Source of the DNA: a virus
Taxonomy: Duplodnaviria > Heunggongvirae > Uroviricota > Caudoviricetes
Virus record (IMG/VR): IMGVR_UViG_2711768006_000002
Length of the DNA: 9,305 bases
Strand: one strand, 5' to 3'
The translations under genes were made by a program, and so were the position numbers. This document shows, in pieces, positions 4,868-6,605 of this stretch; the first letter of the stretch is position 1; every line of letters starts with the position of its first letter. Below the pieces are notes generated by a model, which was given only the letters and a program-made list of their open reading frames with translations, was not told where the DNA came from and did not search any database.

Positions 4868-5117
4868 NNNNNNNNNNNNNNNNNNNNNNNNNNNNNNNNN
4901 NNNNNNNNNNNNNNNNNNNNNNNNNNNNNNNNNNNNNNNNNNNNNNNNNNNNNNNNNNNNNNNNNNNNNNNNNNNNNNNNNNNNNNNNNNNNNNNNNNNN
5001 NNNNNNNNNNNNNNNNNNNNNNNNNNNNNNNNNNNNNNNNNNNNNNNNNNNNNNNNNNNNNNNNNNNNNNNNNNNNNNNNNNNNNNNNNNNNNNNNNNNN
5101 NNNNNNNNNNNNNNNNN
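4868..5117. other. Run of 250 N (assembly gap or masked segment)
   Basis: Continuous N lying between the tRNA array and the holin. It hides the holin start (about 16 codons) and roughly 200 nt or more of upstream sequence. Confidence 0.95.
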
Positions 5118-5180
5118 GAGTCAGACATTCCCACACAATATTGTGTCAGTGCAAATAACAACCTTCGTCTCAAATCTCGC

Positions 5181-5255
5181 TGGAGCGGGCAGCGGGAATC
5201 GAACCCGCATCATCAGCTTGGAAGGCTGAGGTAATAGCCATTATACGATGCCCGC
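5181..5255 (-). tRNA. tRNA-Gly (anticodon UCC)
   Basis: Reverse complement reads GCGGGCATCGTATAATGGCTATTACCTCAGCCTTCCAAGCTGATGATGCGGGTTCGATTCCCGCTGCCCGCTCCA. It has a 7-bp acceptor stem, a T-arm GCGGG/TTCGATT/CCCGC, anticodon loop CUUCCAA and an encoded CCA. It resembles host glyT. Confidence 0.9.
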
Positions 5256-5258
5256 ATA

Positions 5259-5334
5259 TGGTGCCGACTACCGGAATCGAACTGGTGACCTACTGATTAC
5301 AAGTCAGTTGCTCTGCCTGCTGAGCTAAGTCGGC
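5259..5334 (-). tRNA. tRNA-Thr (anticodon UGU)
   Basis: Reverse complement reads GCCGACTTAGCTCAGCAGGCAGAGCAACTGACTTGTAATCAGTAGGTCACCAGTTCGATTCCGGTAGTCGGCACCA. Anticodon stem ACTGA/TCAGT, loop CUUGUAA, encoded CCA. Confidence 0.85.
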
Positions 5335-5336
5335 GC

Positions 5337-5413
5337 TGGCCCACCACCGAGGACTCGAACCTCGCACCGTCAACTTAGAAGGTTGATGCTCTATCCGGAT
5401 GAGCTAGTGGTGG
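5337..5413 (-). tRNA. tRNA-Arg (anticodon UCU, reads AGA/AGG)
   Basis: Reverse complement reads CCACCACTAGCTCATCCGGATAGAGCATCAACCTTCTAAGTTGACGGTGCGAGGTTCGAGTCCTCGGTGGTGGGCCA. Anticodon stem TCAAC/GTTGA, loop CUUCUAA, T-loop TTCGAGT, encoded CCA. Confidence 0.85.
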
Positions 5414-5414
5414 T

Positions 5415-5491
5415 TGGTGGCCCTTGCTGGACTTGAACCAGCGACCTGGCGATTATGAGTCGCTCGCTCTGACCAACTGAGCTAAAGGGCC
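5415..5491 (-). tRNA. tRNA-Ile2-like (anticodon CAU, ileX/ileZ type)
   Basis: Reverse complement reads GGCCCTTTAGCTCAGTTGGTCAGAGCGAGCGACTCATAATCGCCAGGTCGCTGGTTCAAGTCCAGCAAGGGCCACCA. Anticodon loop CUCAUAA. It closely resembles E. coli ileX (minor isoleucine tRNA) rather than tRNA-Met. Confidence 0.85.
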
Positions 5492-5500
5492 GGAGGCAGA

Positions 5501-5529
5501 ATAATAACCATATGTCATCACATCTGCAA
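5501..5529 (-). promoter_or_regulatory. Candidate sigma70 promoter for the tRNA array
   Basis: On the minus strand: -35 TTGCAG (plus 5524-5529), 17-nt spacer, -10 TATTAT (plus 5501-5506), with the tRNA-Ile 5' end about 9 nt downstream. Confidence 0.4.
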
Positions 5530-5579
5530 ACTCATCTGACCACCAGCACGTTTAACGTCCTGTGCCGTTTTTCAGGTAT

Positions 5580-5606
5580 AAAAAAACCCGCTCATCGGCG
5601 GGTTTA
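5580..5606 (-). terminator. Intrinsic terminator downstream of the ORF6N-domain gene
   Basis: On the minus strand: AAACCCGC-CGATGA-GCGGGTTT hairpin (8-bp stem) followed by TTTTTTTAT (plus A-run 5580-5586). Confidence 0.65.
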
Positions 5607-5680
5607 AGCTGTGTGGCGTAGTAACCACTCTTAACAGGATATTCAACTTTTTACGATCGTAAAGTTTTCGGAAAAAATTT

Positions 5681-6250
5681 TTAAAACCGCATCAACCGCT
5701 CCACCAGTTGCTCTTTACGGGCAACGATCCACCCGTGTTGCTCCAGATAAAATTTAAACCGTTCCAGAGTACATACCATCGCATCGGCGGGTACCTTTTC
5801 CGTGAACTCAACCTGACCGTGTTTATCGAAGTGGCTCAGTAATGCGCATCCATCATTTTCGATAGATGTGTTTTGTGCCGCTGGTGGCTGTTTCTGGTTG
5901 AAATAACAGTCTTCCAGTTTTTCGAACACTTCCCACGCCTGATCGGTTTCGAGCATTTTGGCGTGACGGGCTGCGCCACGTTCTGTCCAGAGGATGAGGG
6001 AGCGAACGTTACGGGCAATTTTCACAGAAACTCTTAAAGAGTTTTCGTTCTTCAACTCTCGTAACGCATCACCTTCTATCAGGAAAAAATGTTTACCTTC
6101 TATAAACCGTTCTTTGTTTCGATTGAAATTGTTTGTCAAACGCTGGCGCTCTGTTCCGTACAAATCAGCCAGCAGCTCTGTTGTCATGACAGGAAGATGG
6201 TTATGCGTAAGTGACGGGAGTTTTTCAATAGACGTGCGATTCATAGACAT
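5681..6250 (-). CDS. ORF6N-domain protein (KilA-N/Bro-N-like, phage antirepressor-like), cargo gene between Q and the lysis cassette
   Basis: The 253-aa ORF begins at a GTG with no RBS. The ATG pair at 6250/6244 is preceded by AAAGGA and gives MSMNRTSIEKLPSLTHNHLPVMTTELLADLYGTERQRLTNNFNRNKERFIEGKHFFL, which fits the ORF6N consensus as I recall it (LAELYGV..RLNE..KRN.ERFPEDFMFQL). The C-terminal half is not recognised. Confidence 0.6.
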   Translation of the reverse strand: MSMNRTSIEKLPSLTHNHLPVMTTELLADLYGTERQRLTNNFNRNKERFIEGKHFFLIEGDALRELKNENSLRVSVKIARNVRSLILWTERGAARHAKMLETDQAWEVFEKLEDCYFNQKQPPAAQNTSIENDGCALLSHFDKHGQVEFTEKVPADAMVCTLERFKFYLEQHGWIVARKEQLVERLMRF

Positions 6251-6605
6251 GTCCTTTCGAATATTTTGATTTACCCCTTTTGAGAGGGTGACCGGGCGCT
6301 CAAAACCGTCGAAAGTCGGCGGGCGTATTTCCATTGCTGGTATTGTATTAGCCGCACACCCGGTCATAAACCAAGAATTCTGGACACAAAAAAACCACAT
6401 GGCTATCGGGTGTGGATACCGCTTTCGAGGTGTTTTGAGCACCGCGGGGAAATGTAAACTGCAAACCTGAAACTGTCAACACCGTCAGGTTCCAATCATC
6501 GGGTGGTGAGACGCACAGGGTTGGAACTACCGGGAAACCGACCGGCGAGCTTTTCAGCTCCCCCATGCGCCCCACCATAATTCAGATGTGCGCGTGCATA
6601 CGACA

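Follow-up and report, generated by a model that had tools for sequence, protein, structure and literature searches.

A candidate antirepressor switch with two antisense RNA cassettes between Q and the holin gene of a lambdoid prophage

This study concerns a 9,305-nucleotide (nt) stretch of a Caudoviricetes genome (IMG/VR record IMGVR_UViG_2711768006_000002; the whole stretch is hereafter called the window), and in particular the interval between its Q antiterminator gene and its holin gene, where an ORF6N-domain gene is preceded by small RNA elements. Four described systems serve as points of reference. The immI locus of phages P1 and P7 was reportedly worked out by Citron and Schuster and by Heinrich et al. 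as an operon of the c4 antisense RNA, icd and ant, and the Rfam families C4 and c4-a1b1 represent these immI elements. Its antisense RNA presents a loop a' and a junction b', with matching sites a1 and b1 upstream and a2 and b2 downstream at a ribosome-binding site (RBS); the product is an antirepressor, and between P1 and P7 the specificity shifts by co-variation of all copies. In Salmonella, the isrK-orf45(STnc1160)-anrP-isrJ unit of Gifsy-1 (Hershko-Shalev et al. 2016, PMC4825925) consists of Q, a promoter, the IsrK leader with its terminator, a C4-like RNA, the antirepressor gene, a terminator, a tRNA and the lysis genes. There, Gifsy-1 is induced by IsrK, which activates anrP translation, and also by expression of AnrP, and the latter increases the transcription of antQ as well (PMC4825925). 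The sRNA-Xcc1 family (RF02221), as first described in Xanthomonas campestris, is integron-borne, trans-acting and under HrpG/HrpX control. Finally, Shiga toxin (Stx) phages have a Q-pR'-tR'-tRNA-stx slot of variable content between Q and the holin gene, with ileZ-like and Arg(UCU) tRNAs.

The window shares features with all four. In our judgement there is roughly a 70% chance that its interval is an antirepressor switch of the P1 immI and Gifsy-1 isrK type directly after Q, followed by an accessory tRNA array and a non-coding lead-in to the lysis genes. The order of elements is that of Gifsy-1, with about 200 nt added by a second promoter, a second leader and an sRNA-Xcc1-type RNA.

The ORF6N gene and the RNA elements upstream of it

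All genes in the window lie on the minus strand, as do the elements described below. An initial annotation, made from the sequence letters, had placed an ORF6N-domain gene at 5681-6250, and Pfam agrees, with PF10543 over residues 15-99 of this open reading frame (ORF; E 9e-21). The start is likely the second ATG, at 6244 instead of the alternative at 6250, which gives 187 amino acids (5681-6244), as in the NCBI annotation of a 99%-identical cluster; a Shine-Dalgarno (SD) sequence, AGGA (6255-6252), lies 7 nt 5' of this ATG. Nothing had been recognised in the C-terminal half. However, the PHROG family phrog_2379 'anti-repressor' matches the protein end to end (residues 3-189, E 3e-85), and Gifsy-1 AnrP (STM2616) aligns with it over its full length (49% identity over 184 residues, E 6e-58), and the aligned part includes a conserved GW(I/F)V motif close to the C-terminal end. 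An AlphaFold model (pLDDT 74.6) predicts a winged-helix-like N-domain that ends near residue 115, then a disordered linker (114-129), and lastly a small C-domain consisting of a beta-hairpin and two helices. A fold search with this model returned weak, generic winged-helix/MerR/Xis-like matches only, none of them for the C-domain, and no PDB entry matched the protein by sequence. The databases hold roughly 4,900 relatives, the closest cluster being one named from Shigella sonnei; relatives retain the N-domain and exchange C-domains. Shigella and E. coli assemblies with the locus itself number in the thousands.

By its ORF6N N-domain and AnrP-type C-domain, the protein is probably an AnrP-family antirepressor, and the AnrP experiments and the PHROG annotation suggest that it would bind and inactivate a repressor. 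In one near-identical relative (L035, 1757-3005) the gene is broken at about codon 22 by an IS3-family element, and in another (L036, 3511-5423) a recombinant fuses residue 170 to the DUF1367-YbcO-DUF1133 (Q-like) block of another prophage.

The interval after Q had been read as pR' and tR'. A promoter and a terminator do follow Q immediately, and the 474-nt spacer between Q and the ORF6N gene also holds, above the Rfam gathering scores and in order from Q, isrK and c4-a1b1 (6697/6684-6608), C4 (6582-6499) and sRNA-Xcc1 (6365-6282). These elements make up two cassettes. In both, an exact complementarity scan of the window found 7-9 nt complementarities in a sense/antisense/sense arrangement, and in both the antisense RNA, with its loop a' and junction b', is preceded by a1 and b1, as in P1. 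The downstream half of the P1 arrangement, with a2 and b2 at an RBS and an antirepressor as product, is found in cassette 2 but not in cassette 1.

Cassette 2, next to the ORF6N gene, begins with the promoter-like sequence P2 (TTGACA-17-TACATT, 6451-6479). Together with an intrinsic terminator after the gene (5584-5605), P2 bears out the earlier suggestion that the gene has a candidate promoter and terminator of its own. Leader 2 (6388-6445) follows, with a hairpin GGUG-CUCAAAA-CACC that carries b1* (6440-6432), the site a1* UCGAAAG (6428-6422), and a terminator-like hairpin CCACA...UGUGG with a U7 run (6415-6388), the stem of which changes from CCAC/GUGG to CCGC/GCGG in relatives. The sRNA-Xcc1-type RNA (6282-6365), a full-length covariance-model match (RF02221, 77.4 bits, gathering score 53), is encoded 32 nt 5' of the start region. 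It exposes a' CUUUCGA in its hairpin-2 loop (6315-6309) and b' GUUUUGAGC at its 3' junction (6306-6298). The loop and the junction (UUUUGAG) are complementary to leader 2 and to sites on or just before the ORF6N RBS, namely b2* CUCAAAA (6284-6278), just after the RNA, and a2* UCGAAAG (6260-6254), which overlaps the SD. Each 7-mer is over-represented in the window and clustered at this locus. That the RBS can pair with an antisense RNA from directly upstream points to an antirepressor gene that is built to be kept off. Judged by its sequence, cassette 2 is arranged as in P1 C4 (a1 b1 / a' b' / a2 b2), apparently with another RNA family in the antisense role. It differs from immI in that the masked RBS would be the antirepressor's own and not that of an icd-like ORF, in that the masking RNA belongs to sRNA-Xcc1 and not to C4, and in that the element is a lambdoid prophage.

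A further complementarity exists within cassette 2. In the leader-2 terminator, the sequence of the 5' arm and the loop, CACACCCG (6414-6407), can pair with the 5' strand of the outer stem of the Xcc1-type RNA, CGGGUGUG (6362-6355). This pairing is kept in the EC12 locus through A-to-G and U-to-C changes, and may represent an alternative fold of read-through transcripts.

Cassette 1 lies next to Q. Its IsrK/c4-a1b1 leader (6608-6684; RF01394, 77.5 bits; RF03163, 50.1 bits) has two hairpins, with b1 UUGGAAC in the loop of the second (6659-6653), a1 GAGACCG (6644-6638) and an intrinsic terminator (6629-6613) followed by a U run. The C4-type antisense RNA (6499-6582; RF01695, 71 bits) carries a' CGGUUUC (6540-6534) and b' GUUCCAA (6527-6521). 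The latter is complementary to b1 and to a second UUGGAAC, b2 (6495-6489), which lies just 3' of C4 and upstream of P2; an a2 site matching a' is absent from the window. Of the features that would fit a P1-like release by RNase P, a tRNA-like outer stem with a CACCC tail behind it is visible. The b1/b' pairing corresponds to the G28-C162 and G31-C159 pairs of Gifsy-1 (PMC4825925), as IsrK positions 28 and 31 (G28, G31) fall in the UUGG(A/C)(A/G) loop, which fits the published mutational data. The b specificity differs, being UUGGCGU in Gifsy-1 and UUGGAAC here, and the Gifsy-1 C4-like RNA has the SD-proximal a2 that the window C4 lacks.

Two AUGs inside C4 (6578 and 6566) lie at +107 and +119 from the transcript start, the same positions as the AUGs of Gifsy-1 orf45. 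The ORF from the first of them (6578-6348) encodes 76 amino acids, spans P2, leader 2 and its terminator, and stops about 100 nt short of the antirepressor start; the stop-start (ATGA) overlap of orf45 and anrP, which would mark translational coupling, is absent. Across loci, the C4-internal ORF ranges from 8 to 76 amino acids with unrelated ends, has no ATG in one locus, and reaches the antirepressor start only in Gifsy-1-like loci. The 76-amino-acid ORF was considered as an icd/orf45 equivalent that couples translation, and was rejected because neither its length nor its end is conserved and no NCBIfam or PHROG family matches it.

Within the spacer of the IsrK promoter, UCCGGGG (6704-6698) is complementary to CCCCGGA (6653-6647) in the 3' arm of IsrK hairpin 2. 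This pair is invariant in four diverged loci and lies inside the Rfam c4-a1b1 match. It would be relevant only in transcripts that arrive from the Q gene.

Co-variation and layout among related loci

A pattern scan of IMG/VR combined with nhmmer yielded 46 distinct Xcc1-type cassettes. They comprise at least 20 different a' loops, i.e. specificities, and several b' variants, and the three sites co-vary. For example, in EC12 (E. coli), with a spacer 82% identical to that of the window, all three a sites have changed from UCGAAAG/CUUUCGA/UCGAAAG to UCAGUAG/CUACUGA/UCAGUAG. A perfect cognate match of at least 7 nt between a' and a2 is found in 83% of the 46 cassettes (3.6% for non-cognate pairs), and between a' and a1 in 74% (7.4% for non-cognate pairs). 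Furthermore, a2 always abuts the SD, 26-36 nt past the Xcc1-type RNA. In a plain, unfitted MAFFT alignment of 34 cassettes, a'-a2 and b'-b2 were 84% paired. Double-sided changes numbered 63, compared with 22±4 after shuffling (0/500), and the covariation score was 0.36, compared with 0.10-0.16 with slid partners; the outer stem and the hairpins of the Xcc1-type RNA themselves covary as well. In 13 of 27 related cassettes, a promoter that scores at least 9/12 was present at a constant spacing to the b1 loop, compared with 1.3% of shuffles. The genes 3' of other Xcc1 cassettes encode Bro-N, Rha, KilA-N, P22_AR_N or ORF6N proteins, all of them antirepressor-type families. A place in a lambdoid prophage, upstream of an antirepressor gene, is a different context from the integron cassette in which the family was first described, and the flanking, co-varying targets indicate a cis-linked antisense role for the Xcc1-type RNA, with a putative decoy leader of its own.

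Upstream of AnrP-family genes, the cassettes occur in several layouts. IsrK and C4 alone precede the gene in Gifsy-1, VL40, PA8 and most IMG/VR loci; IsrK, C4 and Xcc1 precede it in the group of the window, in EC12 and in L068-L072; Xcc1 stands alone in L004 and is doubled in L095. In every single-cassette locus, a C4 a2 site lies next to the SD, 30-37 nt after C4, and in every double locus this site is missing. In L068 and L072, b2 also no longer matches b' of C4. Since a2 is missing from all double loci, cassette 1 appears to have lost its target in cis, which leaves cassette 2 as the lock on the RBS. We interpret the IsrK and C4 cassette as the ancestral, Gifsy-1-like unit, whose SD-proximal target was lost through recombination. 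It probably no longer gates the antirepressor gene in cis and may act in trans on other prophages with UUGGAAC-type targets.

Tandem arrangements are found elsewhere as well. In L095 (2662-2953), the upstream copy of two tandem Xcc1 cassettes likewise lacks downstream targets. In Xylella fastidiosa, a published table lists five Xcc1-type copies about 380 nt apart in one strain and an Xcc1-isrK-C4 run in another (PMC12189769).

The proposed switch and its alternatives

Based on these elements, we propose the following sequence of events. In a lysogen, transcripts from P2, together with read-through from the IsrK promoter, would yield the Xcc1-type RNA. Either processed or within the 5' untranslated region (UTR), this RNA would pair its a' and b' with a2 and b2, hiding the SD and blocking translation, and no antirepressor would be made. 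The short, terminated leader 2 that starts at P2 displays a1 and b1 and could act as a decoy which titrates a' and b' and frees the SD, like IsrK in Gifsy-1. The antirepressor would then be made and would inactivate the prophage repressor, leading to induction. Cassette 1 would in this case still provide a promoter and a terminator beside Q.

Several points weigh against this proposal. The locus is known here from its sequence, and the mechanism is deduced from it. The pairings are short (7-9 nt), and the repressor that the antirepressor would target does not lie in the window. As only about 50 nt separate a' from a2, folding of the 5' UTR in cis could provide the lock, in place of a processed, trans-acting RNA; in Xanthomonas, sRNA-Xcc1 has been described as a trans-acting small RNA (sRNA). 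Moreover, when Gifsy-1 STnc1160, i.e. the C4 region, was co-expressed with IsrK, toxicity increased and was not relieved (PMC4825925), unlike what a simple repressor and decoy titration would predict.

Alternatively, the promoter and terminator after Q could be a plain pR' and tR', and the interval up to the holin gene a moron slot, in which the ORF6N gene and the tRNAs are highly expressed by Q-modified polymerase during lytic growth and the ORF6N protein binds DNA in an unknown role. The position of the elements speaks for this explanation, which we nevertheless consider unlikely. The Q gene (6725-7132) belongs to the Q21 family (Pfam PF06530, 2.7e-52; PDB Q21 chains 6jnx/6p18, E 2.7e-7), and a promoter-like sequence with 10 of 12 consensus positions (TTGACC-18-TATATT, 6691-6720) begins 5 nt past its stop, followed by a terminator, as expected for pR' and tR'. 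With the Q stop at 6725 and the -35 element at 6720, this IsrK-type leader promoter occupies the canonical place of pR', and no space is left for another promoter. In addition, transcription from Q toward the holin gene would meet four intrinsic terminators, so that the late genes require an antiterminated polymerase, and both the variable slot content and tRNAs resembling the ileZ/arg set of Stx phages would fit a moron slot.

However, the predicted transcription start, 7 nt 3' of the promoter at 6684, is the first base of the isrK match, and the same promoter geometry is found in Gifsy-1, VL40, EC12 and PA8. The IsrK unit follows three unrelated types of Q, namely Q21-like in the window, DUF1133/Q-like in VL40 and Q82-like in Gifsy-1, and in the Stx2a phage PA8 the whole promoter-leader-C4-antirepressor unit lies far from any Q gene, with a complete promoter of its own (TTGACG-18-TATATT). 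The moron-slot explanation also does not account for an RBS complementary to a co-varying antisense RNA, or for a protein whose homologue AnrP has a known regulatory role. It is compatible with the switch as far as transcription is concerned, and fails on the identity of the gene. The description of the ORF6N gene as highly expressed cargo is for the same reasons given up: unlike the Stx slot, the window holds no toxin or other host-directed cargo, and its protein gene is part of how the phage itself controls lysis and lysogeny, and is built for repression. A 'hybrid' promoter, with the -35 from the Q module and the -10 from the isrK module, had been considered as evidence for pR' and was dropped in view of the complete promoter of the same geometry in PA8. 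It is plausible that one transcript start serves both the IsrK and the late leader, for which StxS, a short terminated leader working as an sRNA in Stx phages (reviewed in PMC12197685), would be a precedent; Q would then have to read through the IsrK terminator.

Another explanation, which we regard as improbable, is a two-tier cascade, in which cassette 1 exerts active control in cis over cassette 2 or the antirepressor, either by pairing at b2 or through translation of the 76-amino-acid ORF, and both locks have to be opened. In the window, b' and b2 do match, and the C4-internal ORF starts at the AUG positions of Gifsy-1 orf45 and spans the leader-2 terminator. Furthermore, the double layout was seen with five combinations of cassette-1 and cassette-2 specificities, so the layout survives further recombination. 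The loss of the cassette-1 a2 in every double locus, the unmatched b2 of L068 and L072, and the inconstant length and ends of the C4-internal ORF argue against control in cis.

Lastly, the Xcc1-type RNA might act in trans on mRNAs of the host, a role that has been proposed in Xanthomonas and Xylella, and the literature treats sRNA-Xcc1 as virulence-linked; its place upstream of ORF6N would then be incidental. We consider this very unlikely. Across at least 20 specificities, the variable parts of the RNA co-vary with sequences in the leader of the same cassette and at the downstream SD, changes that a fixed host target could not track, and the downstream genes are consistently of antirepressor type.

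Surroundings of the switch and wider meaning

Downstream of the proposed switch, the terminator at 5605-5584 keeps its position in EC12, VL40 and also in Gifsy-1, in which it serves isrJ. A search of the window for isrJ (RF01393) with E values of up to 1 allowed gave no match; isrJ is present in Gifsy-1. There, IsrJ (L104, 33406-33480) is a short RNA that ends in a terminator between anrP and the tRNA and late genes, a place that would plausibly also suit a terminated leader of the pR' type; the equivalent in the window is the terminator only.

A promoter-like sequence (TTTGCA-18-TATTAT, 5501-5530), identical in VL40, lies about 10 nt 5' of the first of four tRNA genes (5181-5491), which the initial annotation had also counted: Ile2(CAU) (5491-5415), Arg(UCU) (5413-5337), Thr(UGU) (5334-5259) and Gly(UCC) (5255-5181). 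All four encode their CCA ends. ARAGORN calls the first tRNA-Met(CAT), yet it is identical in 77 of 77 positions to a RefSeq tRNA-Ile gene; we take it to be ileX/ileZ-like, with a close resemblance to E. coli ileX, and the likeness of the array to the ileZ-arg set of Stx phages held. The codons read by the four tRNAs are A-ending and rare or minor in E. coli; in the window genes, ACA makes up 26% of Thr codons and ATA 10% of Ile codons. Relatives carry the same four tRNAs, Thr-Gly only, a CAT-Arg(tcg)-Arg(tct) trio, Met-Lys-Thr-Gly, or none. A tRNA-Lys(UUU) of PhiR47_1 (L001, 3651-3727) occupies the same array slot as the window tRNA-Arg(UCU) and is identical to it in 65 of 77 positions, as though a phage tRNA array had undergone an anticodon switch. 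The view of the Q-to-holin interval as a variable slot is supported, since relatives differ in the presence of the antirepressor gene, in the number of tRNAs (0, 2, 3 or 4), and in a methyltransferase and gogA.

The array is followed by 250 masked nt (4868-5117) before a class II holin gene of the S21 type (pinholin; PF04971), the visible part of which spans 4700-4867, with the gene ending at 4700. The position of the mask had been described correctly, but its real length is 665 nt, of which the last 48 nt belong to the holin gene. Six records match the window exactly over 8000..5118, namely two IMG/VR contigs and four NCBI complete chromosomes, and all of them hold an identical 665 nt at the mask; in the two contigs (L028, L033), all unmasked bases of the window between 9250 and 3526 are matched at 100%. 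A second mask of 199 nt (4412-4610, lysozyme/Rz region) corresponds to 626 nt in the records where both flanks were findable. The masked runs are thus not length-preserving, and coordinates past either of them are compressed relative to the real genome.

The coding part of the 665 nt is the start of the 71-amino-acid holin (MYQMEKISTG...). The other 617 nt gave no credible Rfam match, their two longest ORFs (98 and 71 amino acids) no PHROG match, and RefSeq annotates only the holin in this segment in nine E. coli genomes that carry it at 99% identity or more. A strong terminator lies about 40 nt 5' of the holin start, and other prophages have copies of the central 350 nt, 85-89% identical, ahead of their holin genes. 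The hidden segment is a non-coding lead-in of the lysis cassette and holds no hidden cargo. A hidden segment with just the holin 5' end and unannotated DNA was one of two observations named beforehand as speaking against cargo; the other, an ORF6N gene conserved as a core gene in all relatives, is not what was found. A copy of the pre-holin segment, 85% identical, also lies beside iss on ColV-type conjugative plasmids (pECOS88, L225, NC_011747 111759-112102, and about 550 others), and is a fossil of a lambdoid lysis cassette.

The remaining genes of the window are arranged as follows. A DnaB-like helicase gene, an 85-amino-acid ORF and RusA precede Q, and the holin gene is followed by a SAR-type lysozyme gene with the second mask, Rz, HNH, TerS, TerL and portal genes. 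The 85-amino-acid ORF (7472-7729) overlaps the helicase and RusA genes at start and stop, and yielded weak, coiled-coil-like Pfam matches but no significant family match. The HNH endonuclease gene (3776-4126) lies immediately 5' of TerS (3160-3663) and TerL (1430-3163), an order typical of HNH-assisted cos packaging.

Parts of this picture are already known, namely the IsrK-C4-AnrP order after Q from Gifsy-1 and antirepressor control by C4 from P1; neither a tRNA array nor variation of the Q-S interval is unusual. The tandem layout of C4 and Xcc1, and sRNA-Xcc1 RNAs as C4-like antisense locks with their own decoy leader, appear to be new. On the position of sRNA-Xcc1, the searchable literature records only that it precedes an ORF6N gene in APSE phages, or symE in Xanthomonas integrons. 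In the same literature, we found neither a mechanistic link of sRNA-Xcc1 with C4 nor a cis-linked antisense role with a decoy leader, though other accounts may exist.

On balance, we lean slightly toward a wider interpretation, in which the sRNA-Xcc1 family is a second widespread antisense lineage of the C4/CI-like kind. Its members would be self-contained, programmable locks that gate phage antirepressors, and possibly integron toxins (SymE), with a specificity rewritten by three-site co-variation, and tandem cassettes (C4 with Xcc1 in the window, Xcc1 with Xcc1 in L095) would give layered or hetero-immune control of induction. If this is true, each Xcc1 lock consists of a promoter, a decoy leader, an antisense RNA and a masked RBS. 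If the Xcc1 cassette does lock the antirepressor, a widely annotated sRNA family, which is now discussed as a host- or plant-directed virulence sRNA, would gain a concrete, testable mechanism. For annotation, it means that the Q-to-holin spacer in such prophages is not empty pR'/tR' DNA, and that the ORF6N gene should be named an AnrP-family antirepressor. Antirepressors offer a RecA-independent route to induction, by which co-resident prophages can trigger one another, and the short a and b sites would predict which prophages share an "RNA immunity".

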